A stretch of 64,000 nt of DNA from a virus (Duplodnaviria > Caudoviricetes). The DNA is taken from positions 10,123 to 74,122 of IMG/VR virus record IMGVR_UViG_3300033076_001247; one strand, given 5' to 3'. Position 1 is the first letter of the stretch. Each line of letters starts with the position of its first letter. A model generated the notes under the pieces. It was given only the letters and a program-made list of their open reading frames with translations, did not search any database and had not been told where the DNA came from. Made by a program: the position numbers and the translations under genes. Below, one piece after another: positions 1 through 52,735 of the stretch.

Positions 1-1987
1 TCCACGCGGCGGCCGCATTCTGAGACCTGAGAAACTTGTCTGAGCGCGCCGGCATGGTCTCGATGGTGACGCCCATCGACTGCATGAGCTGTGCGACGCC
101 GGCCTCCGTGCCGCCCGTGTACCAGCGCATCGGGGCGGCGTAGCGGGCCTTGAGCGAGGCGAGTTGCTGCGCCATCTGCGGCGCCTCGAGCTGCGCCCGG
201 ACGACGTCGAGGACGTAGCAGTGGCCTTGCCCATCGGCGGCGAGGACGACGGCCACCGAGTAGTCCGCCCGGCTCTTGGCCGTGTACGCAAGGTCGACGC
301 CGATGGCGACGCGCCAGACATGCGACCGGACGACGGTCGTCTGCGGGTCGTAGAGGCGGACGTCTCGGAAGACGGCGCCGCCTCGAGGGCGCGGCTCGCC
401 CATATAGAGGGAGGCCCAGCTGTACTCGCCGAGCGCCTCGCGCTGCTCCTTGAGCCAAGCGGGCGAGTACCGCTCGGGCCAGAGCGGGGCGCCCTCGGGC
501 GAGACGGCCTGCAGGTTGACCCGCTCCCACCCGTGCTGCTTGACGAGGCGGCCGGCGAGGTCATCCTCGTGCCAGCGGGTGTGGACGACGATGACGGAGG
601 CGGCCGGGTTGAGGCGGGTCTTGGCGACGTCGGTAAAGAACTGCCACACCCGCTCGCGCTTGAGCGCGGACTCAGCCTCGACGCGGTCCTTGTAGGGGTC
701 GTCGATGACGAAGATGCCGTCGACGCTCTTGCCTGTGAGCTGGCCCGAGACGCCTTCGGCGATGAGCCCGCCGCCTCGAGCGGTGCGCCACCGACGGAGC
801 GCCGCCTGGTCGCTCATCTCGACGCCGGCCGAGTCGGTGATGGACCGGATGCGCCGGCTTTGGTCGGTCGCGAAGTTACCGGCGTAAGTGACGTAGGCGT
901 GCGTTCGCGTCGGGTCTTGAGCGAGGTGCCACGCAAGCGCGTGCATGATCGTCTCGCTCTTGCCGTGCTGCGGCGGGGCGGAGACGACGGCTCGGACCGG
1001 CTCGTGGCGGGCGCGCTCGAGGAGGGCGACAAGGGGCGCGAGGTGGCGCGGGGCGATAAGGGATCCGCCGCTGACGCGCTCGATGAACGAGTTCAACGGC
1101 TCGGCGGCGGTCCGCATGTCGGCGCTCAGGATGGGCGCGACGAGCATCCGGCGCTGCCATGCCGACTCGTCCATGTCCTTCTTGCGCCGCTCGACGCGCT
1201 CGAGGTTCCACTTCTCGGGCCACGTCGGGGCGCCTGCAGCGTCGACGACCGGCGAGCGGACGATCTGCACGTCGGGCTGCGAGGCGAGTCGGGACACGGC
1301 GTCGTCCGGGTGCAGCGGCGTCCCGAGGGCGACGACGGCCCCATAGGGCGAGACCGACGCAAACAGGACCGCCTCGAACCAGTCGCGAATGAGCTGGCGG
1401 GCGCCCGGCGTGCGGACGTGCTCGTCGGCGAGGGCGTCGTCGATGACGAGCAGGTCGATGGGGGCGCGGGAGACGAGGCCGAGGCCGGTCCCGACCGCCT
1501 GGACGGACGGGTCGCGGTGGACCCTGCCGGCGACCGCGAGGCTGCGGGCCTTCGGTTCCCCGTCGAGGCGCAGGTCGGGGAAGACGTGGCGCAGCTCGGG
1601 CGACGAGTCCAGGTAGCGGGCGACGAGCCCGAGGACCGTCCGAGCCGCCGGCAGGGTGCGCCCGACGATGACGATGCGGGCGTTCCTGTTCTTCCCGAGG
1701 GTGTGCAGGATTCGCGAGACGGACCAGAGCGACCGGCCCGACTGGTCGTGCGCCCAGAGGACGGTGCGGCGGCTGCGCTCGGCGGTGAGGTGCCACCGGA
1801 TCTGCTCGCCCGAGAGCTTGACCTTCTCGCCGGTGGCCGTGTCGCGCAACACCATCTCCGCAAACGACAGCGGATCGGCGGCGGCGAGCGCGTAGTGCGC
1901 CTGCCTCGCCCGCTGCCCGGCGCGGCGGAGTTCCACCATCGCAAGGCGCTCGGCCGTCTCGCGGTCGTAGACCGACGGGTTGGTCAC
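1..1987 (-). CDS. terL: Terminase large subunit, 3'-truncated by the window, with tandem ATPase domains (degenerate + intact) and an RNase H-like nuclease domain
   Basis: Manual translation from GTG 1987, which overlaps the TGA of the upstream MTase; open to the window edge and missing from the ORF track. The second domain has Walker A PPQHGKS, Walker B IFVIDDPY, TRWHEDD, LWPERY and nuclease IGVDLA..DYSVAVV. The first domain has HDQSGRS, LLVIDD, GTPLHPDD and TWPEKW. Confidence 0.93.
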   Translation of the reverse strand, partial: MTNPSVYDRETAERLAMVELRRAGQRARQAHYALAAADPLSFAEMVLRDTATGEKVKLSGEQIRWHLTAERSRRTVLWAHDQSGRSLWSVSRILHTLGKNRNARIVIVGRTLPAARTVLGLVARYLDSSPELRHVFPDLRLDGEPKARSLAVAGRVHRDPSVQAVGTGLGLVSRAPIDLLVIDDALADEHVRTPGARQLIRDWFEAVLFASVSPYGAVVALGTPLHPDDAVSRLASQPDVQIVRSPVVDAAGAPTWPEKWNLERVERRKKDMDESAWQRRMLVAPILSADMRTAAEPLNSFIERVSGGSLIAPRHLAPLVALLERARHEPVRAVVSAPPQHGKSETIMHALAWHLAQDPTRTHAYVTYAGNFATDQSRRIRSITDSAGVEMSDQAALRRWRTARGGGLIAEGVSGQLTGKSVDGIFVIDDPYKDRVEAESALKRERVWQFFTDVAKTRLNPAASVIVVHTRWHEDDLAGRLVKQHGWERVNLQAVSPEGAPLWPERYSPAWLKEQREALGEYSWASLYMGEPRPRGGAVFRDVRLYDPQTTVVRSHVWRVAIGVDLAYTAKSRADYSVAVVLAADGQGHCYVLDVVRAQLEAPQMAQQLASLKARYAAPMRWYTGGTEAGVAQLMQSMGVTIETMPARSDKFLRSQNAAAAW

Positions 1988-2427
1988 GGACAGGCTCGGG
2001 CGCGGAAGGTCAGGAGCATCGACGGGAAGGGCGCGCCCACCTTGGCGTCGCCGAACTTGAGCCGACCGCGCAGGAACTCGACGGCGCAGTCTGGGTTGTG
2101 CAGGCAGTGGTCGTGGAACCACGCGACGTCGGTGCGGCTCGGGACGAGCATCACAACGACGGTCGACGGGGCGTCCTTGACCGACTGCGCGGCCTTCTCG
2201 ACCCACCGGCCGATGCCGCGCCCGTAGGGCGGGTTGCACCAGGCGCGCTCGCCGGCCCACGACTGCGCGAGGCCGTCGGCCGCCTCGTCGTAGAAGCGGG
2301 CGCATTTGGCGTTGCCGGCGTCGGCCGCGACGTCGACGGTGAACCGCCAGACGGCATCGAGCCGGTCGAACAACGCCTGCGGCGTCGCCCACTCGACGGT
2401 CTTGGACTGCGCGATGTAGCCGCTCAC
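1984..2427 (-). CDS. Phage DNA N6-adenine methyltransferase (Dam-like, PF05869 type)
   Basis: WATPQ..F..L, DVAA...NAKC..FY, WCNPPY catalytic motif, VVMLVPSRTD..WFH. Confidence 0.92.
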   Translation of the reverse strand: MSGYIAQSKTVEWATPQALFDRLDAVWRFTVDVAADAGNAKCARFYDEAADGLAQSWAGERAWCNPPYGRGIGRWVEKAAQSVKDAPSTVVVMLVPSRTDVAWFHDHCLHNPDCAVEFLRGRLKFGDAKVGAPFPSMLLTFRARACP

Positions 2428-2717: not shown

Positions 2718-2971
2718 AGCTGCACCTCGGGGTTGGCCTTTGCCGCCTCGGCCTTTATGGTCTCGACGAGCCCCGCGACGCGGTCGCGGCAGGTCTGGTC
2801 GTGGAGGGCGCCGAAGAGGTGGATGGTGCGGTTGATGTCGCGCTCCGACGGGGTGCGACGCCCCGGCGAGACGAGCGGCTGCACGGTCCCGCAGAGGCGG
2901 CACTCGACGGAGGTGACCCGCCCGCGCGGGTGCCGGCGGACGACAACCTGGACGTGGTCGGGCCTTCTCAT
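2714..2971 (-). CDS. Hypothetical protein (CxxC/H..C Zn-binding)
   Basis: Coupled at both ends; ECRLCG, HDQTC. Confidence 0.6.
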   Translation of the reverse strand: MRRPDHVQVVVRRHPRGRVTSVECRLCGTVQPLVSPGRRTPSERDINRTIHLFGALHDQTCRDRVAGLVETIKAEAAKANPEVQL

Positions 2972-3888
2972 GCCTCTGCCACCTTTGTTCGCCCTCCGAG
3001 GGCGTTCTGGGATTCGACGACGAGCCCGAGCTGCCGGGCGCGCTGGACTGCGGCCTCGGCCTCTTGGACTGCGGAGACGGCCTCGTCGACGCTGATCTCG
3101 TGTTGGACGACGCCGATGATGGCCTGCGGGGCGCCGACGTGCAGGCGCTCGAGTTCGATGACGACCTGCGCCGCGAGCGTCGCGTCCTTCACCGTGCGGG
3201 ATATCTGCCCGATGGTCGAGGCCGCCTTGTCGATGGGTATCTGGCCGGCGTCGATGGCGGCGCGGAGCTGGTCGGCGAGTTTGGCGAGGCCGGGCATCAA
3301 GCGCATCGTCCCGCCGAGGGTGCCGATGGCCGCGCCTCGAGCCAAACGGACGAGCTGCGCCTCCTGCGTGCGCGCCTCGAGCGCCTGCTGCCTGGCCTTC
3401 TCGCGCTCCGCCTCCTCGGCGGCTTCCTTCGCCGCTCGAGCTCGGGCGGCTTCCTCCCGCTCCCGGAGCGCCTGCTCGGCGATGCGCCGGCGCAGCTCGT
3501 CGGCCTCGGCCTCGGCCTTTTGAATCTCGGCGACCGTGTCGGCCTGCCGGCGGGCCTCGACGTCGGCGAGGGCGGCTTGCCGCTTGGCGGCGGCGCGCTC
3601 GTCGGCTGCCTGTTGCTTCGCTGTTCGCTTTCGCTGGCGCTCAGCGTCGACCTGCGACTCGACGGCGGCCTCGAGCGAGGCGCGGACCTCCGCCGAGTCT
3701 TCGGTCAGAACGAGTGCGATGGGTCGCGCCCACTCCCAGCGGTCGGGCCAGCCGACGTTGTAGGCGCGGCGCGCGGTGACACGGGAGACATCGGCGGCCT
3801 TGGCCGCTCGGTGCCAGTTGGTCCCGTGCGTTCGGAACGCCTCGACGAGCCGCAGGTAGGTGTGCTTGTCGATGAAGCGTTCAGGCAT
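2968..3888 (-). CDS. HTH + long coiled-coil protein, candidate terminase small subunit
   Basis: N-terminal HTH-like NWHRAAKAADVSRVTARRAY, Ala/Glu/Arg coiled coil, position upstream of terL. The function is inferred from position only. Confidence 0.45.
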   Translation of the reverse strand: MPERFIDKHTYLRLVEAFRTHGTNWHRAAKAADVSRVTARRAYNVGWPDRWEWARPIALVLTEDSAEVRASLEAAVESQVDAERQRKRTAKQQAADERAAAKRQAALADVEARRQADTVAEIQKAEAEADELRRRIAEQALREREEAARARAAKEAAEEAEREKARQQALEARTQEAQLVRLARGAAIGTLGGTMRLMPGLAKLADQLRAAIDAGQIPIDKAASTIGQISRTVKDATLAAQVVIELERLHVGAPQAIIGVVQHEISVDEAVSAVQEAEAAVQRARQLGLVVESQNALGGRTKVAEA

Positions 3889-3941
3889 CTTCCGACACCC
3901 TACTTCCGACATGTCGCAAAGAGCAAGCGAGGTGTCGCAAG
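3889..3941. repeat. Nested inverted repeats (four TTC/GCGACA-type units)
   Basis: ttccgaca at 3890 and 3904, tgtcgcaa at 3912 and 3933; outer 11-bp arms 3889-3899/3931-3941 match 10/11. Confidence 0.7.
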
Positions 3942-20059: not shown

Positions 20060-20350
20060 ATGCGAGCGAACGTCCGCTTCCGATACTGGGCCGAGACCGC
20101 CGACGAGCAGGACACTGTTGAGCTGACCGTCCGCGCCGAGGTCGACGCCGGCGTCGAGCCCGTCACCGACCGCCGCCCCGAGCACTGCCATGAGGGCGAG
20201 CCGGCGAGCGTCATCGACGTCGAGGTGCTCGACGAGAACCTGCAGCCGCTCACAATCACGCAGATCGGCGAGCGATTCGTCGGCGGCACCTACGGGAACA
20301 TCATCCGAGAGGTGCTCCGCTCCCGCGTCGAGCTCCCCGACCCCCACTGA
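20060..20350 (+). CDS. Hypothetical acidic protein
   Basis: GGAGA RBS; preceded by 8-bp hairpin CCCTGCCG/CGGCAGGG. Confidence 0.65.
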   Translation: MRANVRFRYWAETADEQDTVELTVRAEVDAGVEPVTDRRPEHCHEGEPASVIDVEVLDENLQPLTITQIGERFVGGTYGNIIREVLRSRVELPDPH

Positions 20351-20406
20351 CACACACCGCCGCGACGAGCGGCACAACGCGGCACCTCGCCGCACAGGAG
20401 GCCACG

Positions 20407-21480
20407 ATGGCCGTCGAAACCAAGGAGCAGTTCCAGAACCGCGCGCTCGCTACCACCGCGACGAACGGCGCGACGCCGATGCGTTACGAGGCGCCGGTCC
20501 AGGGCGTCAACACGCTCGCCTACGAGCCCACCAACCTCGACGAGGCGTTCCGCATGGCGCAGATCCTCGTCTCGAGCGGCTTGACGCCGCGCGGTGTCGA
20601 CACGCCCCAGAAGGCGTTCCTCATCATGGCGCAGGGACGCGAGCTCGGCTTGAGCACGATGCAGTCGCTCGGCAACATCTACGTCGTGGAGGGCAAGGTC
20701 TCGCTGTCCTCCGACCTGATGGCCGCGATGGTGCTCAAGAGCGCCGTCTGCGAGTACCTCCGCGTTATCGAGATGACCCCGGAGCGCGCCACCTACGCCG
20801 CGAAGCGAAAGGGCGGCGCCGAGTTCCGCTTCTCGTTCTCGTGGGAGGACGCCGTCAAGGCGGGCCTTACGAACCGGCCGAACTACAAGGCGAACCCGGC
20901 GGACATGCTGCGGCACCGCGCGTTGAGCAAGTGCGTCCGCGCCGTCTTCCCCGACGTCGTCGCCGGCCTGTACTCCCGCGACGAGGCCGAGGACATCGTT
21001 GACGTCACCCCGCGTCAGGTCATCGCCGAGGTCGTCCATGCTGCGGCCGAGACGGCGACGCAGCCCGCGCTGCCCGCCGCGACGAAGGTCCGCAAGCGCA
21101 CTCCCGCGCAGCCGGTCTCCGCGCCCGTCGTCCAGGTGCAGCCGGCGCCCGAGCCCGAGCCGGTCGTCGAGGAGACCGTCGCGCAGGAGCAGATCGAGGA
21201 CGCCGCGCCCGTCGCCGGTCCGCACCGCAACGACGACGGCGCCATCATCGACCCGCTTACGGGCGAGGTGCTCGACGGCTTTGAGGCCGGCGCGTTCGCC
21301 ACCGTCGGCGACAGCACGACCGAGGAGGCGTTGACCGCCGCGCAGCGCACCGTCTCGGACGCGAAGCCGATGCTCTCGCCGAGCCGCTACTCCGCGCTCG
21401 CCTGGACGTACTTCTGGGCGCGGAAGACCGTGCTCGGCAAGGACGCGCCCGCCCAGTACCAGCAGCTCCGCGCAATCTGA
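20407..21480 (+). CDS. recT: RecT-like single-strand annealing protein
   Basis: EA.RMA..L..SGL.P....TP......G.ELGL..MQSL.NIYVVEGK; W..NP.DML..RA; GLYS.DE. Confidence 0.75.
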   Translation: MAVETKEQFQNRALATTATNGATPMRYEAPVQGVNTLAYEPTNLDEAFRMAQILVSSGLTPRGVDTPQKAFLIMAQGRELGLSTMQSLGNIYVVEGKVSLSSDLMAAMVLKSAVCEYLRVIEMTPERATYAAKRKGGAEFRFSFSWEDAVKAGLTNRPNYKANPADMLRHRALSKCVRAVFPDVVAGLYSRDEAEDIVDVTPRQVIAEVVHAAAETATQPALPAATKVRKRTPAQPVSAPVVQVQPAPEPEPVVEETVAQEQIEDAAPVAGPHRNDDGAIIDPLTGEVLDGFEAGAFATVGDSTTEEALTAAQRTVSDAKPMLSPSRYSALAWTYFWARKTVLGKDAPAQYQQLRAI

Positions 21481-21545
21481 CCGCCCATCCAGTTCGTCGA
21501 GCCGAACCACGGCCGCTGGCAGGCGGCCCACCGAAAGGATGAGCT

Positions 21546-22778
21546 ATGCCGAGCAGAATCTCCGGCTCCAAATTGCCGCTCGTCTCGCACTGCCGCGCTG
21601 CGTTCGCGCCCGACGTCGTCTGGCCGCCGTCGCCTCCCGGTCGTCCCGCCATCTACGGCACCGCGTTTCATGCGGCGGTCGAGCTCTGGTACGCGAGCGG
21701 CGAGGTCGACCTCGACGGCATCGCCGCGAAGCACGGCCTCGACCTTGAGGAGGCCGCCCGCCTCGAGCGCGCCTTCGACGGTTGGTCGACGTCCCGCGTC
21801 GCGAGCCTGTCCGACGCGACGCCCGAGTGGGGCGCCGGCTACGACACCGCCACCGGCACCGTCGTCCTTTTGCCGCGAGGCGAGGGCCGCGCCGCGTACG
21901 ACGGCCTTCCGAGCACCGTGATCTGCGCGACGCTCGACCTCGTGCGCGTCGACGAGCAGAGCAAGAGCGGCGAGGTCCACGACTGGAAGACCGGCAGGAC
22001 GAAGCTCCCGAAGGCCAAGGAAAACTGGCAGCTCCTCTTCGGCGCGATGCTTCTCGCCCGCGCATACGACCTCGACAGCGTCCGCGTCTACCTGCACACG
22101 GTCGACGAGGACGGCGAGCTCCGCACGAGCGAGGGCGAGGTCGATGCCATCGAACTGGACGGCGTCGAGGCCAACGTCACCCGCTGGCAGCGCGAGGCGA
22201 CCGAGCGGCCGAAGCTCAACCCCGGCGAGCACTGCGTCGGGCTGTACTGCCCCATCCGCGCGACCTGCTCGAAGACCAACGAGGCCACCGACGAGCTCGC
22301 GCCCGTCCCGCTGACCGAGGGCGTCGTCTACCCGCTGACCGGCGCCATCGAGTCGCCCCAGCAGGCGCTCTGGATTCTCCATCGCGTCAAGGCCGTGCAG
22401 GCGGCGGTCGACCTCGCCGAGAAGGCCGTCCGCGCCTACGTCGACGAGCGGCAGGGCATCGAGGTCGACGGCAAGTGGTACGGCCGACACCTCGACACCT
22501 GGACGGAGCCCGACCTCTCGACGCTCGACGAGACGAAGTACGCAACGCTCGCCCGACTCGACCTGCAGAACGCCGTCGAGCACAAGCTCGGGACGACGAA
22601 GCTCAAGGCCGAGATCAAGGCGCGCGGGCTCAAGGGCAAGGCGCTTGAGGCCGCCTACGAGATGGCGCTTGAGGAGCTCGGCGCCGCCGGCATGACGAAG
22701 ACGAAGACGCGCGCGGTCTACACCGCCCGCAAGCAGCGCCCCGAGCCCGTTGTGGCCGGGACCGCCGAGGAAGAGTGA
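21546..22778 (+). CDS. PD-(D/E)XK exonuclease (Cas4/RecB-like, recombination partner)
   Basis: GTAFH, TLDLV...HDWKTG, WQL..A, PGEHC..LYCP..ATC. Confidence 0.85.
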   Translation: MPSRISGSKLPLVSHCRAAFAPDVVWPPSPPGRPAIYGTAFHAAVELWYASGEVDLDGIAAKHGLDLEEAARLERAFDGWSTSRVASLSDATPEWGAGYDTATGTVVLLPRGEGRAAYDGLPSTVICATLDLVRVDEQSKSGEVHDWKTGRTKLPKAKENWQLLFGAMLLARAYDLDSVRVYLHTVDEDGELRTSEGEVDAIELDGVEANVTRWQREATERPKLNPGEHCVGLYCPIRATCSKTNEATDELAPVPLTEGVVYPLTGAIESPQQALWILHRVKAVQAAVDLAEKAVRAYVDERQGIEVDGKWYGRHLDTWTEPDLSTLDETKYATLARLDLQNAVEHKLGTTKLKAEIKARGLKGKALEAAYEMALEELGAAGMTKTKTRAVYTARKQRPEPVVAGTAEEE

Positions 22779-30055: not shown

Positions 30056-31159
30056 TCAGACGCGCACGGGCATGATGACCGACAGCGTCTTCGCGCTCGC
30101 GACCGTCTCGCCGTGCGGCAGCACGAGAATCGGCTCTTCCTTCGCCACGAGGCGCAGGTCGACCGCCTCGCCGCCGATGGCCTTCACCGCCTCGCGCAAG
30201 TAGCCGGGGTTCAGTCCGATGTCGCTCTCGGTGTCCTTGCCGACGACCGCCGCGTCGTGCGTGACGACGAGCTCGCCGAGGTCGGGTTCTCGAGCCGCGA
30301 GTGTGATCGACTGCCCGGCGACCGTCGCCTGGACGCGCAGCGACGTCCCGCCGATAGCCCGCGCCTGCTCAGTCGTCTCGACCAGAAGGCCGCTGTCGAC
30401 CGTGACCGTCTGGCCCTCGCCGACTGCCTCGACCACGCTGCGCCAGTCGGGGTGCTGTCCGTCGATGAGGCGCATCACGAGCGCCTGGCTGTCGTCGGCG
30501 TAGTGGATCGCGTTCGCCTCGAACGTGAATCGACCTTCGGCTCGAGCGCAAGCGCGGAGCATCTTCGTCGCGTCGCCGGCCACAATGACCTGCGCGTCCT
30601 CGCCGAGCGTCAGCCCGACCGGCCACGCCGTGCGCGTGAGCGCCAGCCGGTGCCCGTCGGTCGCCATCAACGCGAGCCGGTCGCCGTCGCGGGACAGACT
30701 CACACCACACAGGGCATACCGCGTCTCGTCATGGCCCACCGCGTGAGCGACCTTCTCAAAGGCCGTCGAGAGCCGGTCCCACTGCGGGCACAGGTCGTCT
30801 GCCTTGCAGGGCACCGAGATGGCCGCGCTGTCGGCGTCGATGAGAGGCACTGCGAACCGAGCAGCTCCGCTCTGAACCGTCAGGCGCCGGGCCAGAGACG
30901 GGCAATCAAGGCTCGTCGTGTCCCCGTGCAGCGCGCCGACCACCGCCGCGAAGTGACGCAGCGGGACGACGGCCTGCAACGTCGAGATGCCGCCCGAGAC
31001 GCCGAGCCGCCGCTCGTACCAGTCGCCGATCACGTTGACGCTCACGCGCAGCGTGTCGCCGTAGCCCTCGAGGCGGACCTGCGTCGTCCCGTCCGTCCGT
31101 CCCACGCGCAGCCCGAGGGCGAGCGCCTCCTGCAACTCTTCCGTCCGAACCTTCGTCAT
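30056..31159 (-). CDS. dnaN: DNA polymerase III beta sliding clamp homolog
   Basis: DETRYALCGV, MATDGHRL, RLIDG.HPDW, GLNPGYL, VIMPVRV. Confidence 0.9.
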   Translation of the reverse strand: MTKVRTEELQEALALGLRVGRTDGTTQVRLEGYGDTLRVSVNVIGDWYERRLGVSGGISTLQAVVPLRHFAAVVGALHGDTTSLDCPSLARRLTVQSGAARFAVPLIDADSAAISVPCKADDLCPQWDRLSTAFEKVAHAVGHDETRYALCGVSLSRDGDRLALMATDGHRLALTRTAWPVGLTLGEDAQVIVAGDATKMLRACARAEGRFTFEANAIHYADDSQALVMRLIDGQHPDWRSVVEAVGEGQTVTVDSGLLVETTEQARAIGGTSLRVQATVAGQSITLAAREPDLGELVVTHDAAVVGKDTESDIGLNPGYLREAVKAIGGEAVDLRLVAKEEPILVLPHGETVASAKTLSVIMPVRV

Positions 31160-32526
31160 TCGCTGTCTCCCAGGTGCTCCACGCGCACCTCGTAACCCTC
31201 GGCCTGATATGCGAGGCGTCGAGCGCGCGCGTGCGCCTCAAGCCATCGCTGGCCCCTGTCGTTGAACTCCCACACCACGCAGGAGCTCTTCCCCTCCGCC
31301 TTTCGCAGCCCGCGCCCGACGCGCTGAATGGCCGCGATGGTCGACTGTCCGCCGGCCGCAATGACGACCGACCGAAGCGCCGGAATATCGACGCCCTCTT
31401 GAAAGATGACCGAGCAGACGAGGACGTCGATGCGCCCTTCGACAAGCTGTGCGATGGCGGCCTCTCGCTGCTCGGTCGTGTGCGCCCCGTGAACGTAGGC
31501 TGCTCGGATGCCGGCGCGGGCGAAGGCGCGCATCAAGACCTGCCCGTGCTCGACCGCCTGGACGAAGACGAGCGCGGGCTTCTCGGAGCGCCGCACGGCC
31601 TCGACGACGAGCGCGTTGCGCCGCGCCGAATGCACGACGAGCCGGTCATAGACCGTCGGCCACGTCGCGTCGTCGAGCTCGTCCTGCCAGCAGTCCGCCA
31701 TGAGGATGAGCGGCTTCGCGAGCACCTCGCGCTCGACGAGCACCTCGGGCCGCATGCGGTAGATGACGGGGCCGGTCGCACCGACGACGAGCGAGGACTT
31801 CCGGTCGCCTCGAGCGAGCGGCGTTCCCGACAGGCCGATGCGATAGCGGGCGTTCGTCGCGACGCCCATCACCGTCGTGAAGGTCGACGCCGCGAGAGCG
31901 TGCGCCTCGTCAACGATGACGCCGTCGACCGCCTCGAGCAGCGCCCGCGCCTCGGCGTCGCCGTTCGCGAGGCGAGCCGCGAGCGTCTGGAAGGTCGCGA
32001 CTGTGAACCGACGGGGACGCCACCCGCTCTCGCCGACCTTGCCTGCGGTCTCGCCCGTGAACCTCTTGAACGACTCGGCGGTCTGGTTGAGCAACGACAG
32101 CCGGTGAACGAGGAACAGCCAGCGGGCCGTCGGAAACGAGGCAACGATGCTCGAAGCGGTCGAGGTTTTCCCAGATGCGGTCGGGAGCCAGAGGATGCCG
32201 CGCTCGCGGGCGCAAACGGCCTCCAAAGCGGCTCGCTGGTAGTCGCGCAGCCAAGACACGTCGACGCTCTCGTCGCGCGCCGGCGAGGCCGGGCGGAGGT
32301 CGAGGACATCGAGCGTGCGGAGCTCCTTCGACGCCCGCGACTGGACGATGGGCAGGAAGCCGCTTGGGAACTCGCCGGCGGTCTCGTCCAGCAAGCACAT
32401 CGGCCGCTCGACGCCGGTCGCCCCGACTGTGCGGAACGTGAGGAGTTGCCGCAACCAGTCGCGCTCGTAGTCGTCCGCTCGGACGATGCGGCACGACACG
32501 TTGCGGAACTCGACCTGCACGCGCAC
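31156..32526 (-). CDS. SF2 DNA helicase (UvsW/ResIII-like)
   Basis: LRDYQ, PTASGKT, DEAH, GLSGTP, EGVDIP, QRVGRGLR. Confidence 0.92.
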   Translation of the reverse strand: MRVQVEFRNVSCRIVRADDYERDWLRQLLTFRTVGATGVERPMCLLDETAGEFPSGFLPIVQSRASKELRTLDVLDLRPASPARDESVDVSWLRDYQRAALEAVCARERGILWLPTASGKTSTASSIVASFPTARWLFLVHRLSLLNQTAESFKRFTGETAGKVGESGWRPRRFTVATFQTLAARLANGDAEARALLEAVDGVIVDEAHALAASTFTTVMGVATNARYRIGLSGTPLARGDRKSSLVVGATGPVIYRMRPEVLVEREVLAKPLILMADCWQDELDDATWPTVYDRLVVHSARRNALVVEAVRRSEKPALVFVQAVEHGQVLMRAFARAGIRAAYVHGAHTTEQREAAIAQLVEGRIDVLVCSVIFQEGVDIPALRSVVIAAGGQSTIAAIQRVGRGLRKAEGKSSCVVWEFNDRGQRWLEAHARARRLAYQAEGYEVRVEHLGDSE

Positions 32527-32601
32527 CCCTGTCGGAAGACGCGCACGGTACGCGAAACGCTACCGCGTGACAACGGCAACGCGCGGTGCGATGGTGACCG
32601 A

Positions 32602-44848: not shown

Positions 44849-47800
44849 TTAGGCGTTGTTGGCCTGGCTGAGTTGGCACCAGAACGTGCCGTCGAAGACG
44901 AGCTCGAGCGTGGCGTACTGCGCGAGAGCGTGCGACGGGTTGGTCAACTTGAGACCGCTGCTGCCGCCTCGCGAGAACGTCGTCGTCCCTGCGCCCACCT
45001 GAACGAATGCGATGCGCGAGCCAGCGTTGATCCCGGTCGTTTGGATTGTCGCGTTTGCCGTCCCGAGGTTGACCGCGCCCGCGTTGTTGAGCAGCACGGT
45101 CGGACAGTAGAAGGGGATCGTCGTTCCCGCGACTGGCGTGTAGCTCTTGCCGGGCTGAACGCTGCGACCCACCTCGACCCAGTAAGTGCCATCGAAGATG
45201 AGCGTGATCGTATCGTACTTGAACAGGTAGATATTGCCGGTTGCGAGCTTGAGGTAGCTCGTTCCGCCCGCGTCTTGCGTGAGGTCGACATAGAAGGTCG
45301 AGTCCTCGTTCGCGAGAGTGACGATGGTGCCTGCCGTGATGCCGCTCGTCTGCAGCGTCGGCGAGGCGGTCATGTCTCGGTTCGCAGCCGGATTGAGGAA
45401 GATGGTCGGACCGTTGACTGGGATCGTCGTCGCGGCGGTCGGCGCGTAGGTCGTCGGCACGCCGACGTTACGCCCGTAGACAGAGACATCCTTGCCGCTG
45501 CGACCGACGCCAACCGACTGCGCGTTCGCCGTACCAACCGATACGACGCCGGCAGACGCGAGGCCGGTCGCAGCTCCGGCGTCCACTGTCGCGCCGCCCG
45601 ACGTGGCACCGGCAGCCGATGCGGCCGCGCCGCGCACGATACCGTTACCAGCCGTCGTGCCTGTTCCGCCCTGTACGATGGCGTCACCGCCCGCAAGGCT
45701 ACCCGCGCCACCAACAAGCGATGCGGCGCCGCCCGAGCCATTGGGTGCAACAGTGCCCGCGCCACCGCTAACCGTCATCGCGCCGGCCGCGAACGCCCCG
45801 ACCGTATCGCCAGCCGCGAGCGTGAGGCCAGCTCCGGCGCCTGTCGATTCCAGGTCGACGACCATCGTCACGGTCGTTCCGACGCCCGGTGACTTCACGG
45901 GGATCTGGTTCGAACCGTTGGCCGCCAGGCCGTTCGGGTTCGGGTACGTCGAGCCCGTATAGCCGAGCACACCGCCGGCCGAGCCGGTCGGCGACGCGCT
46001 GTTCGATGTCGGTGCCCAGGCAGTGCCGTTCCAGCCGAGCACCTCGCCCGATGCCGGCGCCGTAGAGGCGACCGCGCGCCCCTGCAGCTTTGCCACCGTC
46101 GGAGAGGGCAGGTTGCCCGAGAGGTCGCCCCCCGCAATATCGCCCGTCATTCCGAGCAGCGTCACCGCCGAGCCGATGCCGCTCGACGTCCCGTACAGGT
46201 ACGAGAGCTGCGCCGCCGTGACGATGTTCGTGCCAACAGAGCCCGAGCCGAAGATGGCCTTGCTCGCACCGTTGGCGACGCCGAACAGGGTGTTCCAGAC
46301 GAAGGCCGCGACCTGTCCAGCTGACCCATTCGTGACGCTGATGCCGTGCGAGCAGGAGGCGTAAGACAGCGTGACCGACGAGTTCGACAGCGTCAGCTTG
46401 ACGCCCGCGTAGCTGCCCGTGACCTCGATGCCGGGACCGATGGTCTGCGCGTCGAGGAGCAGCCGGTCGGCGAACAGCGAGGCGTCGTTGGCGACCGTGA
46501 TGCCCTTGCCTGTCGAGCCGCTAGACACCGCCGACCCGAAGTAGAGCTGCGTGCTGCTGATGCGGACGTCGCCGTAGAGCACCTGCACGATGTCGGGGCC
46601 GGCGGTCTGCACCGTCACGACGCAATCGTTGAGCGTGATGCGTGGGCGGATAGCGTTCGAGGCGTCGATGACGACGGCCGCAGCGGCGGTCGCGTTCGAG
46701 ACCGTCAGATAGCAGTCGGTGACGACGAGCGAGAACGCGCCCGAACTCGACACGTTGAGAGCCGGCGCATTGCCGGCCGACGGCGGCTCGACAAACAGAC
46801 GGTCGAGGCCGATGACGTCATTGAACTTCTGCGTGGCCGCGTCGGGCGACACCGTGACCGAGCCGAGGATCTTCGTCGCCTGCGTTTCGGGCCGCGAGCC
46901 AGACCCGTGAAAGACGATGTTCCACTTCTCGATGATTAGGCTGCCGGTATACGATCCGGGACCAATCTCGACCGAGACCCAGTCCGTCGGATAGTCGACG
47001 AGCGCGACGTCGTGCGCCTTCTGCGGTGTTGCGAACGGGTTCTCGATGCTGCCGTCGCCCGTAACGTCGGAGCCGCTCGTTGCGACCCAATACGTCTGCG
47101 CGTACAGGTTGGCCGGCACGATCTCGGCCGGCGCCGGTCCGACCATGAGGTCGAACGTGCTCGCACCGACCGCGCACACGGTGCCGATCTGCCGCTTGAT
47201 GGTGCCGGGCGTCAGCGCGATGCCTGCCGCGTCTGAGATATAGACCGGGTCGCCGATGGACGGCGCGGAGCCGAAGGGCACGCCCTGGAAGAGTCCCGTC
47301 GTCTGCACGGTGATGACGTCGTCGGCCGCGATGCTGCCGCCAAGGACGCTACCAGCGACGACTCCGTAGACGCCCTGCACCTCGGCCGCGACGTTTGCAT
47401 GCGCCTTTGACCAGGAGGCGACGACACGCTGTCCCGGCAGGGTATCGGCGAGCGTGTAGGTGTCGCCCGCGTAGACGACATCGCCGACGACGAGCGACTC
47501 GCCCGCGACGCCCGGCAGGACGCCCGCGTCGGTGAACCGCGTCACCCGCTCGAGGATGGCGTCGACAGGGTTCGCCCAGCCGTCGTTCGCGCTGTTCTCG
47601 ACCGTCTCGCCGATGGCCGGAATCCGGTCGCCCGTCTCGAGCTCGCGCACCGCCGCAATGAGCTGTTGCGTCGACTCGGTCGGCAGGCCGTCGTCGACGA
47701 CGAGGCGCAGGAGGTACGAGCCTTCCTTCGACGCGGTAAACGAGGCGTCCTGCTGCGTCGGCGTGACGAGTGCGTCAGTCGCGCCCGCCGGCTGCGAGAC

Positions 47801-47920
47801 GATGGCCCACTGGTAGGTCGTCGCCGTATCGACGCTGTGCAGCGTGACCGTCGAGCCCAGCGTGACGTTGTCGTCAGAGACGCCCGCCGCGCCGCCGTTG
47901 ATCTGGATGATGGCTGCCAT
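44849..47920 (-). CDS. Multidomain fibre/tailspike: PKD + shared beta domain + pectin-lyase-like beta-helix + Gly-rich shaft + tandem C-terminal domains
   Basis: YQW.IVSQP..G.Y..RLVV.DG; YWVATSGSD.TGDGS.ENPF.T.Q.A; two C-terminal repeats ending L.FDGT.W. Confidence 0.75.
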   Translation of the reverse strand: MAAIIQINGGAAGVSDDNVTLGSTVTLHSVDTATTYQWAIVSQPAGATDALVTPTQQDASFTASKEGSYLLRLVVDDGLPTESTQQLIAAVRELETGDRIPAIGETVENSANDGWANPVDAILERVTRFTDAGVLPGVAGESLVVGDVVYAGDTYTLADTLPGQRVVASWSKAHANVAAEVQGVYGVVAGSVLGGSIAADDVITVQTTGLFQGVPFGSAPSIGDPVYISDAAGIALTPGTIKRQIGTVCAVGASTFDLMVGPAPAEIVPANLYAQTYWVATSGSDVTGDGSIENPFATPQKAHDVALVDYPTDWVSVEIGPGSYTGSLIIEKWNIVFHGSGSRPETQATKILGSVTVSPDAATQKFNDVIGLDRLFVEPPSAGNAPALNVSSSGAFSLVVTDCYLTVSNATAAAAVVIDASNAIRPRITLNDCVVTVQTAGPDIVQVLYGDVRISSTQLYFGSAVSSGSTGKGITVANDASLFADRLLLDAQTIGPGIEVTGSYAGVKLTLSNSSVTLSYASCSHGISVTNGSAGQVAAFVWNTLFGVANGASKAIFGSGSVGTNIVTAAQLSYLYGTSSGIGSAVTLLGMTGDIAGGDLSGNLPSPTVAKLQGRAVASTAPASGEVLGWNGTAWAPTSNSASPTGSAGGVLGYTGSTYPNPNGLAANGSNQIPVKSPGVGTTVTMVVDLESTGAGAGLTLAAGDTVGAFAAGAMTVSGGAGTVAPNGSGGAASLVGGAGSLAGGDAIVQGGTGTTAGNGIVRGAAASAAGATSGGATVDAGAATGLASAGVVSVGTANAQSVGVGRSGKDVSVYGRNVGVPTTYAPTAATTIPVNGPTIFLNPAANRDMTASPTLQTSGITAGTIVTLANEDSTFYVDLTQDAGGTSYLKLATGNIYLFKYDTITLIFDGTYWVEVGRSVQPGKSYTPVAGTTIPFYCPTVLLNNAGAVNLGTANATIQTTGINAGSRIAFVQVGAGTTTFSRGGSSGLKLTNPSHALAQYATLELVFDGTFWCQLSQANNA

Positions 47921-47930
47921 GAGTGTCTCC

Positions 47931-49094
47931 TTAGAAAGCCTGCGCGTAGAGCGAGAGACGCACCGTCATCGGGGTTGAGAAGTTCTCGACCTCGGCCGTG
48001 GTGATCTCGATTCCCAAGGTCGTTGCGTTGCCGGCAATGACGGTGAACTTCGCGACCGTCGGTCCGATGAGCGCGTCGTAAGTGCCTGCCGCCTCGAAGA
48101 TGGGCAGTGCCGAGGCCCGAGTGACCGTCGCATGGCTCTTGACGGCCGCAAGAAGGTAGGGCTGAAAGTCGGCAAGGCTTGCGTTATCGAGCACCGAGAC
48201 GCCGCCCGCGACAAGACGAAACACGCTCGGATTGACGGCGCCCGACGAGACGTAGACCTCAAAGTATTTGACGCTGCCCGAGTAGACGGGGCGCACAACA
48301 GCATGCACGCCGTTGTTGCCGAAGTCGAATCCCTGCACCTCGGCGGGGTCTGTTGACCCGATACGAGCGTCGAACTCGAGGTTCATCGCCCGTCCACCGT
48401 GCGGAATGAGCACAGGTCGACGGTCCTCGATGTCGGAGTTTGCGAGGTTGGCGGAGCCGGCCGGAACGTAGATGCGGGCGATCTCAAGATAGCCGCTCGG
48501 GATAACAGGAACCGTCGGAGTCCCGCCGGTGGCCGTGCCAGTGATGACGCGCACGCCGGCGCCGAGCGGCGAGTTGACCGGCGACGTGTCGAATGCGTTT
48601 TCAGTGAACTGCGTCGGCTTTGGCTGGAATGAGAACGTGCTTGATGTCGGATTGAGCAGGCCGATGTTCTCGATGTCGGTCGGCTCGTTGGGCGACTTGA
48701 CGCACACGACGTCGATGCGATTGAGGCCAGCACCGAGGTCCGTCACGAGAAGCGAGATGCCCGCCACGCTCGGGTCGTCGGGCTCGCACACGACCGGCGA
48801 GTAGGCACCCGAGTTGACGCCGTTGGCGTCATCCTGCGCGTCCTGCGCGATGAAGCCGAGCCCCTTCTGGACGACGACCTCGCGAGAAGTCGTGCTCGCG
48901 AAGCACCGGAAGCTGTTGCCGATGAAGCCGGTCTCAAAGGTGGGGTTGCCGCCCGGCGACGCCGAGTAGACCGCGCCCGCGAGGTAGCTTTGCGTGACCG
49001 AGTCGTAGAACGCCTGCAGGTTGAGGTCCGACGACAGCGGGCGCTGAAGCGGGTTGATGACTCGGCGCTGGAAGGGCGGGGTGATCGTCGGCAT
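47931..49094 (-). CDS. Baseplate-proximal tail fibre/adaptor
   Basis: RIDVV...G......P.IP.GYLEIA.I.VPAG...I.D.R. Confidence 0.7.
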   Translation of the reverse strand: MPTITPPFQRRVINPLQRPLSSDLNLQAFYDSVTQSYLAGAVYSASPGGNPTFETGFIGNSFRCFASTTSREVVVQKGLGFIAQDAQDDANGVNSGAYSPVVCEPDDPSVAGISLLVTDLGAGLNRIDVVCVKSPNEPTDIENIGLLNPTSSTFSFQPKPTQFTENAFDTSPVNSPLGAGVRVITGTATGGTPTVPVIPSGYLEIARIYVPAGSANLANSDIEDRRPVLIPHGGRAMNLEFDARIGSTDPAEVQGFDFGNNGVHAVVRPVYSGSVKYFEVYVSSGAVNPSVFRLVAGGVSVLDNASLADFQPYLLAAVKSHATVTRASALPIFEAAGTYDALIGPTVAKFTVIAGNATTLGIEITTAEVENFSTPMTVRLSLYAQAF

Positions 49095-50092
49095 CAGTTC
49101 GTCTCCCAGAGGACGTAGGCGGCGACGCCGGCAGCCTTAATGGCCGCGAGCTGGTCCGTGAAGCTGCCGTAGGTCGAGTCCGGTATCGGACCGGCCGAAT
49201 CGAACAGCGACACAACGAACGCCTGCAGGTAGTTGCGGGGAAGGTAGCGGTTGCGCGAGGGCGGGAACGGGCGCGGGTCGTCGTAGACGAACGTGGCGCC
49301 GAGTTCGTTGATGTCCGCCGTCTGTCGACCGTAGGCCGTCTGGAAGTCGACCGCCCAGAGGTCGTGGTACTCGTAGGACTGCGTCGGCGACGTGAAGATG
49401 CGGGCAAGCATCCGCTGAATCGCGCCCGGCGTGACGGTGTCTGGTAGCGTGCGGCAACGCAACCGGAACGCCTCGTCGCTCTCGCCAGGGTACTGCGTCA
49501 ACCCACGGTCGTTGCCGAGCAACTCGAGGAACGGCGAGACACCGCCGTCGGTGCTGCCGTCGGCCGAGGCAGTGATCGTTGAGTCGGCGAACGGCGGGTC
49601 CATCGTCAGCGCGCCGACCGTCCAGGTTGTCGTGATGGGAACCGTCGTCACGCCCGCAACGACTGCCGTGTTCAGCCAGTAGGCGGCAACCGACGAGACG
49701 ACCGGCACCGAGACCGCGAGGTCGGTCGCGCCGAAGGTGACGTCCTCGCTCGTGAAGTAGATGCGCCCGCTCGTCGCGACGACCGCCGAGCCCGCCTTGA
49801 CGTCGAAGACGCCCGTCGAGGTCGAGGCGCGGGTCAGCATCACCGTCGCCGTCGAGAGCTCGGCGGATGGCGCGGTCAAGAAGAACAGCCCGCACCCCAG
49901 CCGCTCGGCCGCCGCGCTGACGCGCGAGAGCGCCTGCGATGCCGCGAGGATGACCTCCCAGCCGGGAGCCCCCGGAGCGCCCGTGCCGGGCGGCTCCATC
50001 GGGTCGAGGTACTCGGGCGGCAGGAACCGGCGAAGCACCTCAACGAGCCGCTCCGGCGTGTCGGCGTTGACGGGGCAGGGAATCAGCGACAT
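49094..50092 (-). CDS. Baseplate wedge protein (gpI/gp48-like)
   Basis: GESDEAFRLR...VTPGAIQ; follows baseplate J. Confidence 0.7.
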   Translation of the reverse strand: MSLIPCPVNADTPERLVEVLRRFLPPEYLDPMEPPGTGAPGAPGWEVILAASQALSRVSAAAERLGCGLFFLTAPSAELSTATVMLTRASTSTGVFDVKAGSAVVATSGRIYFTSEDVTFGATDLAVSVPVVSSVAAYWLNTAVVAGVTTVPITTTWTVGALTMDPPFADSTITASADGSTDGGVSPFLELLGNDRGLTQYPGESDEAFRLRCRTLPDTVTPGAIQRMLARIFTSPTQSYEYHDLWAVDFQTAYGRQTADINELGATFVYDDPRPFPPSRNRYLPRNYLQAFVVSLFDSAGPIPDSTYGSFTDQLAAIKAAGVAAYVLWETN

Positions 50093-50095
50093 GCG

Positions 50096-51235
50096 CTACC
50101 CCGCCACTACGAGCTGAAGGTTCGTGCGAATGACCTGCAGTGGCGTCGGAACGACCGTCGCCGTCGGGAGCACCACCTCGTCGCCGACGAAGTAGAGGCC
50201 CGTGACGTTTGCGAGCGCCGCCTCGAGCGCGCCTACCGTGAGCTCGGCACCCGGAGCGAGCGCGTTGACGGTCTGCACGCACACCGAGCGGGCCTGCAGT
50301 GAGACCGCCTCGGTGTCGTACCCTGCCTTGACTCGCAACCGCAGCGTCACCGGCTGAAGGACGACCTGCGCCACGACCGTAGCGACGTAGATGCCAGCCG
50401 CTCGAGCCTGGTCGACGGCGAGCGCGACCTGCGCCGCGAGCTGCTGCGACTGCGTCTCGTAGGCCGGCGGGACGGTCCCAAGGTTCGCGAGCGTGTCCGT
50501 GTACTGGTCGGTGACTGCGAGCGAGACGTAGCCCGTCTGCTGGCCGTAGGCGTCCACGTCCTCGAAGGCTGCCGCGTACCGCACGCCGGGAACGCCTCGA
50601 GCCGCCTGCTCGATGGCCGCGAGGGTGCCACGCTGGACCGTCGTGAAGAACCGGCGAGCCCGCTCTCGGAGCTCGGCGTCGCTCTCGGGGTCCGCCGCAC
50701 CCGCCGTCGCGAGGGCGTTCGTCACCGCGAGGTCGGCCACCGCGCCGGGGACCGGCGACAGGAGCGTATTGATCTCGCCCACGCCCGCCTGCTGCGTCGT
50801 GCCGGCGAGGACCGAGCGCACCGGGACCGAGACCGGCCCGTTGCTCCCGATGGTGAAGGTCGCCGGCTGCGTCGTCTCAAACTGCGTCCCGTCAGCCGTC
50901 ACGAGCTTCGTCTGTACGGGGATGGCAAAGGTCGACGTCGCGCCGCTCGCCGAGGTGAACTGAACCGTGCCGAGTGCAGCCGCCGCAGGCTTGCGGACGA
51001 GGCCATAGCGGTCGAAGACCAGCCGGTCGAGGTTCAGCCCCGTCGCCGTGTCGAGGAACGACGCCGCCGCGACGTAGGAGACCTGCTGCGCCACCTCGTC
51101 GCCGACCGCCGCGATGCTTGCCACAAGCGCGTTCGCGTCCGAGCCGGGGCGGTCGACAGCCGTCAAGCGTGGGTTCGCCAGCAACAGTTGGTTGCGGGCG
51201 ATGGAGAACAGGTCGGCGTAGGTAGGACGGTCCAC
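50096..51235 (-). CDS. Baseplate J-like protein
   Basis: DTATG..LD; G.V.FT; GA.D.ESD.ELRER; RGT..A. Confidence 0.92.
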   Translation of the reverse strand: MDRPTYADLFSIARNQLLLANPRLTAVDRPGSDANALVASIAAVGDEVAQQVSYVAAASFLDTATGLNLDRLVFDRYGLVRKPAAAALGTVQFTSASGATSTFAIPVQTKLVTADGTQFETTQPATFTIGSNGPVSVPVRSVLAGTTQQAGVGEINTLLSPVPGAVADLAVTNALATAGAADPESDAELRERARRFFTTVQRGTLAAIEQAARGVPGVRYAAAFEDVDAYGQQTGYVSLAVTDQYTDTLANLGTVPPAYETQSQQLAAQVALAVDQARAAGIYVATVVAQVVLQPVTLRLRVKAGYDTEAVSLQARSVCVQTVNALAPGAELTVGALEAALANVTGLYFVGDEVVLPTATVVPTPLQVIRTNLQLVVAG

Positions 51236-51245
51236 GAGTCACCTC

Positions 51246-52076
51246 TTATGCCGCCGCGACCACCCGCGTTGCGACGTTCACGCTCGTTCCGCTCCGCAGC
51301 CGCGCTTGAATCTGGACGAGCACGATGCCGTCGCTCTGGAGCGACACGCGCACGCCCGCGTCGACGACCTCGGGCTCCTTGAGCACGTTCGCCTTGATGG
51401 TGTCGCGGATGACCGGAAGCTGGCCGGGCGAGATCAGCCCCTTGACCGGCAGGTCGAGCCCGTAGTCGGGCAGCCAAGTGAAGCCGCCCTTCGGGATGGT
51501 CAGCCGCCGGACGATCAACTTGCGAACCGTCTCCTCGACGGTGCCGAGTTGATAGTCGCCGTCGCTCCCGACCTGCAGCGTGCCGGAGACCTGGTTGTCC
51601 AAGACCTGCGGTTGGATGTTCCGCAGGTCGCCGGTCGTTCCCGGCTGCGCGACGAGTTGCGGCGCCTGCGCGCACCCGTCGAACGAGATGGCGGCGTCGG
51701 GCTGCACCGCGCCGACTGGATTCCGCAGGCCGACCGTCGAGACGGTCAGCGTGTCGGTCGCCGGCCCGAGCGGGAAGAGGGTGATCAGCCGGTAGGTCGT
51801 CGCGTTGACGTACTCGACGGAAGCCACGACGCGGTCGCTCGTTCCCGTGATGACGCCCTCGGCGTTGCGGACCGGCCCGACGATTGTCCACGACGCGGGG
51901 TTGAGCGCGTCGCCGGGGTACTGCGCCCCGAGGTGCTGCGGCTCGTAGTTGAGCTCCACGAGCACGATGCGGTCGCCCGCCGCGAACGCCCGCACAAAGT
52001 CGATGACGCCGACCGAGAGCCCGCCCCATTCGGACGTGCCCCACGCCTGATAGCCGTAGCCGGAGACCGTCATCAC
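51246..52076 (-). CDS. Baseplate wedge gp25/W-like protein with N-terminal Ig-like domain
   Basis: RRLT.PKG....PDYG; VL.EP.V at the C-terminus. Confidence 0.75.
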   Translation of the reverse strand: MMTVSGYGYQAWGTSEWGGLSVGVIDFVRAFAAGDRIVLVELNYEPQHLGAQYPGDALNPASWTIVGPVRNAEGVITGTSDRVVASVEYVNATTYRLITLFPLGPATDTLTVSTVGLRNPVGAVQPDAAISFDGCAQAPQLVAQPGTTGDLRNIQPQVLDNQVSGTLQVGSDGDYQLGTVEETVRKLIVRRLTIPKGGFTWLPDYGLDLPVKGLISPGQLPVIRDTIKANVLKEPEVVDAGVRVSLQSDGIVLVQIQARLRSGTSVNVATRVVAAA

Positions 52077-52726
52077 TTCACCTCGGAGGTCGTCGAAAGA
52101 ATGGCCGACGTCGGGCCGACAAGAACCGTCGGGTCAACGGAGAGTTGCATCGTGCTGGTAACGACGCCGGCCGCCGCCGACGTGTGCGTGTGGCCGTTCA
52201 GTTGGTCGACGATGCCGCCAAGGTAGCTCTTGAGGCTCTCGCCCTTCGCAACCGCCTCGGTGCCCGTCTCGCTGCCGAGGAAGACCTTGCCCGTGTCGAC
52301 CGCGAGGATGACGTTTCCGCCGCCCTGCACCGTGAGCCGCAACGACTTGTCGGCCTCGACGACGAGGACGACGTCCTCGGGCGTCGCCTCTAGCCCCGCC
52401 GGCGGAACGTCGGCCGGCGACCAGAGCCGCTGCGTGATGACGAGCCCCTGCGCCGGGTCGCCGCCGGGAGCCGAGACGAGCACCTCGTCGTCGACCTTGA
52501 CCGGCGCGTAGAAGCCAAAGCCCGAGCCCGCGTAGGCCGCGCCGAGCCGCGCCGTCTCCCGCCGCTTGGAAGGCATCAGCAGCACGTCGCAGAACACGCC
52601 CGCCGCCTCGTCGATGACGACCGACTGCACGATGGCGAGCGAGCACCACGACCTCGGGTCGATGCCAGGGCGCTGCATGGCTCGCGAGAGCGCGTTGAGG
52701 TCGAGGCCGCTGGCTGCTCGTCGCAT
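52073..52726 (-). CDS. Baseplate central spike (gpV-like)
   Basis: OB fold P...DEVLV..PGGD; C-terminal HTH metal-binding apex (NGHTH). Confidence 0.8.
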   Translation of the reverse strand: MRRAASGLDLNALSRAMQRPGIDPRSWCSLAIVQSVVIDEAAGVFCDVLLMPSKRRETARLGAAYAGSGFGFYAPVKVDDEVLVSAPGGDPAQGLVITQRLWSPADVPPAGLEATPEDVVLVVEADKSLRLTVQGGGNVILAVDTGKVFLGSETGTEAVAKGESLKSYLGGIVDQLNGHTHTSAAAGVVTSTMQLSVDPTVLVGPTSAILSTTSEVK

Positions 52727-52735
52727 GGTCGCCTC

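Follow-up and report, generated by a model that had tools for sequence, protein, structure and literature searches.

A phage large terminase gene fused from two terminase lineages

The terminase locus and its fused gene

The window analyzed here is a stretch of 64,000 nucleotides (nt) of tailed-phage DNA, bases 10123-74122 of the 74,122-bp IMG/VR virus record IMGVR_UViG_3300033076_001247. At its left end lies a minus-strand gene of 726 codons (G000:C1:9929-12109 in the record), the product of which, P0002, consists of an ATPase domain typical of the large terminase subunit (TerL) followed by a second TerL-type ATPase domain and a nuclease domain. We are confident that this is a real gene in which two TerL lineages have been fused. 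The frame is open from a GTG codon at 1987 to the left edge of the window, its TGA stop codon lies 193 nt farther left in the record, and its start shares the tetranucleotide GTGA with the stop codon (TGA) of a methyltransferase gene. The original prediction of a single open frame that starts at GTG 1987 and is coupled to the methyltransferase gene stands as regards the frame and the coupling but fell short on the extent of the gene, because the window edge cuts it and the last 64 nuclease codons lie outside. The P-loop and Walker B motifs that it listed for both copies are all located where it had placed them. The features of the locus, in window coordinates, are given below; types A and B are two TerL families discussed in the next section, and aa stands for amino acids.

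1..1987, continuing left of the window, minus strand: fused TerL gene (open frame; whole protein against the PHROG 38 profile, E = 4e-97)
1133..1987, minus strand: N-terminal TerL-type ATPase domain (N-domain), aa 1-285, of type A (T7 gp19-like), predicted to be catalytically degenerate (PHROG 38, AlphaFold2, Foldseek, tree)
1730..1750, minus strand: Walker A-like P-loop HDQSGRS, aa 80-86, with Arg85 at the Lys position (motif, type A alignment)
1436..1453, minus strand: Walker B motif LLVIDD of the N-terminal copy, aa 179-184, with D183 and D184 kept (motif, alignment)
1100..1132, minus strand: inter-domain linker, aa 286-296, including Met291 (low model confidence at 287-294, alignments)
353..1099, minus strand: second, canonical ATPase domain, aa 297-545, belonging to a complete type B core (Terminase_6N, PHROG 38 and PHROG 4758, tree)
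956..976, minus strand: canonical Walker A motif PPQHGKS, aa 338-344 (motif; K343 invariant)
698..715, minus strand: Walker B motif IFVIDD of the second copy, aa 425-430 (motif; D429 and D430 invariant)
1..352, minus strand: RNase H-like nuclease domain, aa 546-726, truncated at the edge of the window (PHROG 5573 and PHROG 38; PF17289 on homologues)
1984..2427, minus strand: DNA methyltransferase (phrog_111, E = 2.8e-47), the stop codon of which overlaps the TerL start
2968..3912, minus strand: p314, a protein with a helix-turn-helix (HTH) segment, a coiled coil and a conserved C-terminal domain, putative small terminase (position, co-occurrence with type A and fused TerLs)

The presence of two TerL-type ATPase domains in one chain follows from several lines of evidence. 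Residues 1-290 match positions 266-514 of the PHROG 38 (TerL) profile (E = 1.5e-30) and residues 291-662 match positions 292-652 (E = 1.6e-65), so that both halves correspond to the same part of the profile; aligned with each other, the halves are 25% identical (E = 9e-11). The Pfam domain Terminase_6N passes the cut-off on the second copy only (E = 1e-5). The AlphaFold2 model of residues 1-290, based on 70 sequences, has a mean predicted local distance difference test score (pLDDT) of 94.5 and a predicted template modeling score (pTM) of 0.91, and its top Foldseek matches in PDB, down to E = 4e-6, are all TerL ATPases, namely those of PhiV-1 (8dgc_E, E = 7e-12), P74-26, T4 (gp17), Sf6 (gp2) and HK97. 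Thus, the N-terminal part is predicted with high confidence to have the TerL fold of the additional-strand, catalytic-glutamate (ASCE) class, as had been anticipated, and the claim that a single gene encodes two TerL-type ATPase domains together with a nuclease is borne out by the profile matches of both halves, by the fold and by the recurrence of the frame described below.

In the C-terminal part, K343, D429 and D430 are invariant across 47 sequences. The nuclease portion extends the PHROG 38 match to profile positions 652-714 and also matches PHROG 5573 (E = 1.9e-18); PF17289 is recorded on full-length homologues, and on the piece cut by the window edge the Pfam match is weak (E = 0.2). The GC content of third codon positions (GC3) is 0.83-0.97 throughout the fused open reading frame (ORF), which indicates that both halves are coding in that frame.

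Two other explanations of the layout were considered and rejected. An intein is not the source of the extra length, as P0002 has no Hint or LAGLIDADG match. A conserved internal start at Met291 is unlikely as well: close relatives have Ile or Val here, and there is no clear ribosome-binding site upstream of this position.

The full-length AlphaFold model has a mean pLDDT of 85.5 and a pTM of only 0.44, with the linker residues 287-294 below a pLDDT of 50, and the inter-domain packing is not confident. As modeled, the N-domain is tethered flexibly by the linker of ~10 aa rather than held as a fixed second tier. The idea that it builds a second tier of the motor ring therefore finds no support in this model, which is that of a monomer with a disordered linker.

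Homologues were collected using word-index and HMMER searches of JGI, NCBI, ENA and Logan assemblies. The fused proteins, 725-732 aa in length, fall into at least 13 clusters drawn from all four sources, and the frame is kept in all of them. In 10 of the fused clusters, the N-domain is 70-96% identical to that of P0002; in P0227 and P0228, which come from at least six contigs from different samples, the identity is 45% and 41%, respectively, in the N-domain and 68-69% in the C-terminal half. A continuous fused ORF is also present in IMG/VR loci from five metagenomes, and the junction sequence is conserved among the fused TerLs. The frame between the halves, in which a stop or a frameshift might have been expected had two genes been joined in error, is open in many independent assemblies. 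The possibility that two genes were joined by an error of assembly or sequencing can accordingly be set aside with virtually no reservation, and a chimeric assembly is excluded, because the continuous ORF recurs independently at 57-96% identity, with a continuous codon bias across the junction.

Among 50,697 cultured-phage records, tblastn searches with the N-domain and with the whole protein did not find the two-ATPase layout but only single-ATPase TerLs; the two matches with more than 80% coverage turned out to be both halves of the query aligned onto one ATPase. In the literature, we found no description of a TerL with two ATPase domains, a duplicated ATPase domain or a pseudo-ATPase domain. 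The parts are all known, and it is the arrangement and its origin that appear to be new.

Origins of the two halves

The nearest unfused relatives of the N-domain are ordinary TerLs of ~480-550 aa with 30-37% identity, which we denote type A; a profile built from type A TerLs and fused N-domains matches T7 gp19 and the PhiV-1 TerL (E = 2.6e-22). The nearest relatives of the C-terminal half are likewise ordinary TerLs, of ~440-480 aa and with 50-58% identity (type B), and on long contigs the type B genes directly precede those for Portal_Mu, Mu_F, a Mu-like protease and gpT. In a joint tree, the split between type A and type B is fully supported. The fused N-domains form a clade within type A (support 100), and the fused C-terminal halves form a clade within type B (support 99), the sister of which is an unfused protein of 457 aa, P0229. 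The N-domain has no nuclease of its own, and the start of the type B core follows it directly; indeed, the fusion junction coincides exactly with the beginning of the conserved type B core. Some type B TerLs begin at this very position, and the fusion replaces just their variable leader of 0-55 aa.

The source of the N-domain was traced through the portal gene, which encodes a 645-aa protein (phrog_145, E = 2.8e-11) and lies ~800 nt downstream of the TerL gene, a synteny that is kept in relatives. With this portal, 39 IMG/VR loci were gathered, and the TerL type was then assigned in each. Loci in which the portal is 57-92% identical to that of the phage analyzed here have a fused TerL. At 41-48% portal identity, every locus that covers the upstream region has a full-length unfused type A TerL, which indicates that the original TerL of this lineage was of type A and that the N-domain is its remnant. 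The locus with 51% portal identity (L179) has an unfused type B TerL that is 99% identical to P0229. There is no similarity between the portal of this phage and the HK97-type portal of the phage that encodes P0164, an unfused type A TerL, so that type A phages with related TerLs do not all have related portals. The original prediction had described the ATPase as duplicated. This view is not tenable, since the two copies belong to different TerL families in the tree, and the portal-related loci mark the N-terminal copy as a relic of the native TerL.

A second, distant candidate for a tandem-ATPase TerL is P0016, a protein of 782 aa that is a singleton from one 8.4-kb ENA contig (ERZ1761150) and has the same two-ATPase layout. 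Its motif state is reciprocal to that of the main fused clade: the N-terminal copy has HIEGGKT, retains every residue of the type A consensus and shares 63% identity with P0164, whereas the C-terminal copy has PPQHSKT, with the Gly before the Lys changed to Ser. In free trees, both halves of P0016 fall outside the main fused clades, and P0016 may represent an independent fusion. In approximately unbiased (AU) tests, monophyly of all fused N-domains, P0016 among them, is not rejected (p = 0.55); a single clade of the C-terminal halves is rejected without P0229 (p = 0.023) but not with it (p = 0.15). Hence, if the unfused P0229 is counted as a secondary loss, a single origin of the fusion is not rejected by these tests. 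Scans of IMG/VR with the P0016 protein found no further fused gene of this kind.

The same searches yielded many type A TerLs of 640-1300 aa that owe their length to inteins (Hint_2, LAGLIDADG_3 and Intein_splicing domains), among them P0023, P0026, P0041, P0054, P0086, P0091 and P0013. These inteins occupy at least two sites, one immediately downstream of Walker A and another within the nuclease domain. In one Logan contig (L212:3805-5255, SRR14932615), a type A TerL is encoded as a 273-aa ATPase ORF with an intact GKS and an abutting 209-aa ORF, which could be a frameshift or a genuine split gene; this contig also carries a resolvase gene and an Abi_alpha gene.

With regard to the neighborhood, the small methyltransferase is not found in the corresponding position in the P0011 and P0227 relatives. 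In the P0227 lineage, the gene just downstream of the fused TerL (L083:9178-9969, minus strand; also L084 and L085) encodes a protein of 263 aa that contains EGF_CA and EGF_3 domains, which are unusual for a phage. The remainder of the window is that of a myovirus-type genome: within 20194-22778 (plus strand), 30056-32559 (minus strand) and 44849-60441 (minus strand), it encodes a tail sheath protein, baseplate wedge and hub proteins, a helicase, a RecT-like annealase, an exonuclease and a sliding-clamp-like protein, the ORF of which also matches RusA. A 1038-aa ORF in the last of these regions (44849-47965, minus strand) has no PHROG match.

The N-terminal domain and its candidate partner p314

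The degeneracy of the N-domain was measured at the positions that are at least 80% conserved among type A TerLs. The Walker A Lys is present in 98% of type A, and its replacement by Arg, which had been noticed in the HDQSGRS motif of P0002, is confirmed as a property of the clade: Arg85 occurs without exception in all 13 of the 13 GR-type fused sequences, across three sublineages (HDQSGRS, HDESGRT). Position 176, seven residues upstream of the Walker B acidic pair, is Arg in 98% of type A as well as in T7 gp19 and the PhiV-1 TerL, and is Pro or Ala in the fused clade (Pro in P0002). It is in this region that the P74-26 TerL has a trans-acting arginine finger, R139 (PMC5389665), and by analogy the lost R176 is a candidate for the equivalent of this residue. 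The other changes in the fused clade are G174R and the loss of K117, W145, K158, R211, H232 and E276. The Gly and Ser/Thr of the P-loop, the Walker B residues D183-D184, D229 and W256-P257 are retained.

In the closest pair of fused sequences, the ratio of nonsynonymous to synonymous substitution rates (dN/dS) amounts to 0.083 in the N-domain, compared with 0.099 in the second ATPase, and the purifying selection on the N-domain that these sequence data indicate is clear in this pair. At larger distances, the synonymous sites are near saturation (GC3 ~0.95). The N-domain therefore fits the description of a pseudoenzyme, with catalytic residues gone, the fold kept and purifying selection continuing, and we consider it probable that the N-terminal copy is not an active ATPase.

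A candidate partner for such a domain is p314, which is encoded ~1 kb upstream of the TerL gene. It has an HTH-like segment at the N terminus; its coiled coil is variable and its C-terminal domain conserved. A hidden Markov model (HMM) of the p314 family detects a member upstream of every fused TerL for which the upstream region is available. In portal-related phages, many unfused type A TerLs also have a member 0-2.8 kb upstream, which often abuts the TerL (homologues in L184, L190, L197-L201, L204, L208 and L166; alignment A6), and one is found upstream of P0039, which is among the closer type A relatives of the N-domain. The same HMM search did not find the family beside the unfused type B TerLs of L179/L209, L168 and L169. 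The family, which occurs in many uncultured phages, matches nothing in Pfam or PHROG, and the protein atlas gives only sub-threshold HTH and Terminase_5 leads for p314. From its position, architecture and co-occurrence with type A TerLs, p314 likely represents a novel, previously unnamed family of small terminase subunits (TerS).

The sister lineage offers a comparison. In the L179 lineage, a canonical TerS (phrog_4102, E = 1.4e-24) is encoded ahead of the unfused type B TerL (L209:1411-2802); L179/L209 combine this TerS with a portal that is 51% identical and have neither the N-domain nor p314. The record that contains the fused gene, for its part, has no phrog_4102 TerS and no other TerL. 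Thus, the lineages that kept p314 also kept the type A ATPase, whereas the sister lineage with a canonical TerS has neither, which is suggestive support for a partnership between the two. The segment L209:612-2802 (IMG/VR 3300045009_000365) looks like a wholesale replacement of the packaging module.

We propose the following scenario. The ancestor of the portal lineage would have had an ordinary T7-gp19-like (type A) TerL, the nuclease half of which was swapped in frame for the whole conserved core of a type B TerL, a kind known from Mu-like head modules. ATP-driven packaging and cutting would be the task of the type B part, in which Walker A, Walker B and the nuclease are intact. The retained type A ATPase, on its flexible tether, most likely does not hydrolyze ATP because the Walker A Lys and the Arg before Walker B have been lost, but binding of nucleotide or DNA may persist. 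The domain is kept under selection, probably as an adaptor that would preserve a lineage-specific contact with the cognate p314, a contact that the imported motor alone could not make. We favor p314 over the portal as the partner because L179 combines the same portal family with a type B TerL that is unfused.

Taken as a whole, the proposal of a chimeric TerL in which a type B motor is joined to a retained pseudo-ATPase that serves as an adaptor to p314, the p314 step being one that we infer, has in our judgment about an even chance of being correct. That the N-domain is an adaptor to p314 or to a TerS is, as a separate claim, quite possible, with the balance leaning somewhat against it. Slightly more tentative is the broader suggestion that a dead T7-like ATPase, acting as a built-in specificity adaptor, allowed a whole Mu-like motor to be transplanted to phages of an unrelated lineage while the resident p314 stayed in place, perhaps twice if P0016 is counted.

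Several observations weigh against this proposal. An Arg-containing Walker A together with an intact Walker B could still permit slow hydrolysis, and R174, two residues upstream, might replace the lost R176. At larger distances, dN in the N-domain exceeds that in the second ATPase by a factor of 2-2.5, which is consistent with relaxed constraint. p314 itself has no match to a known TerS family in Pfam or PHROG, and the record is ~56% complete, so that a TerS could be encoded elsewhere in the genome. The contig of the unfused sister starts just 1.4 kb upstream of its TerL, and the link of p314 with the N-domain on one side, and of a canonical TerS with its absence on the other, amounts to one evolutionary contrast, and is suggestive.

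Among the alternatives, both ATPase domains could be active, making P0002 a true double motor in which the unusual GR[ST] P-loop would serve, for example, a second ring or a step of DNA recognition or maturation. The retained P-loop Gly and Ser/Thr, Walker B acidic pair, D229 and W256-P257 are compatible with activity, R85 is invariant rather than drifting, and the N-terminal copy of P0016 has GKT and the complete type A consensus. However, the two replaced residues, K85 and R176, are the ones that 98% of type A TerLs conserve, conservative K-to-R changes in the Walker A of T4 gp17 were reportedly found to be lethal by Rao and Mitchell in 2001, AlphaFold2 predicts no fixed arrangement of the domains, and the N-domain is evolving faster than the second ATPase; we regard a double motor as unlikely. 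The N-domain could also dock the imported type B motor onto the non-Mu portal or procapsid of the lineage instead of p314. This would agree with the occurrence of the portal family in phages with type A TerLs and with some models, discussed in PMC5389665, in which the ATPase domain of TerL lies against the portal, but most evidence places TerL's C-terminal tail on the portal (PMC5389665), and in L179/L209, where the portal belongs to the same family, the type B TerL is unfused and there is no N-domain, which leaves portal docking with a rather small probability.

It is hard to regard the N-domain as a functionless relic of gene replacement that awaits deletion. Its catalytic residues are lost, its dN between more distant sequences exceeds that of the remaining protein, and the P0229 lineage manages without it; nevertheless, dN/dS in the closest pair is 0.08, the frame has remained open at 45% identity across three sublineages with near-saturated synonymous sites, the predicted fold is confident (pLDDT 94.5), and many N-domain positions are invariant in 14 fused sequences, all of which makes a mere relic very improbable. 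The notion of a decoy or shield against terminase-sensing STAND defenses of the Avs type, raised in the original prediction, has a single link to the data: the best structural match, 8dgc_E, is the PhiV-1 TerL chain of an Avs3 complex. This match reflects membership in the T7-like TerL family rather than a decoy feature, a covalently fused extra domain leaves the authentic TerL unhidden, no defense or anti-defense context was found around the TerL gene, and the origin by gene replacement accounts for the N-domain without an immune role; we give such a role hardly any credence.

Comparison with known systems

The large terminases, which rank with the best studied and most conserved enzymes of viruses, are regarded as consisting of one ATPase and one nuclease. 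In the fused TerL, there is a second motor domain from another lineage; this architecture recurs and is under selection, and it shows how motors for packaging can pass from one phage group to another. For annotation, this means that phylogeny or classification based on TerL would assign the two halves of P0002 to different families. The fused protein is also a natural construct for locating the specificity of TerL toward the small terminase or the portal and, if the adaptor role of a dead ATPase is correct, it would illustrate the modular swapping of motors in nature.

Compared with the canonical single-chain TerLs (T4 gp17, P74-26, Sf6 gp2 and HK97; Terminase_6N and 6C), aa 297-726 of P0002 likewise make up a complete TerL with GKS, DD and an RNase H-like nuclease, and the gene is likewise located upstream of the portal gene; the difference is the whole extra TerL-type ATPase domain of ~285 aa in front. 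The N-domain and its type A relatives belong to the same sequence and structure neighborhood as the T7 gp19/PhiV-1 TerL family (PDB 4bij, 8dgc), from which the N-domain differs in having no nuclease, no Walker A Lys and no conserved Arg before Walker B. The intein-bearing long TerLs found by the same searches are of comparable length, but there the additional sequence consists of Hint, LAGLIDADG and intein-splicing domains, whereas in P0002 it is a second ATPase.

Paired P-loop ATPases of which one is degenerate yet retained are known from type II AAA+ proteins (NSF, p97 and ClpB) and from heterodimeric ABC transporters, and offer an analogy to the fused TerL. Unlike in those proteins, the fold here is of the TerL-type ASCE class, the modules come from different gene lineages, and no stacked or paired arrangement is predicted.

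With respect to the proposed adaptor role, the closest parallel is in phages lambda (gpNu1-gpA) and P22 (gp3-gp2), in which TerS binds the N-terminal end of TerL (PMC9611059), the same end at which p314 would dock on the fused protein. In these phages, the docking element is a short N-terminal peptide, whereas in the fused TerL it would be a whole relic ATPase domain.

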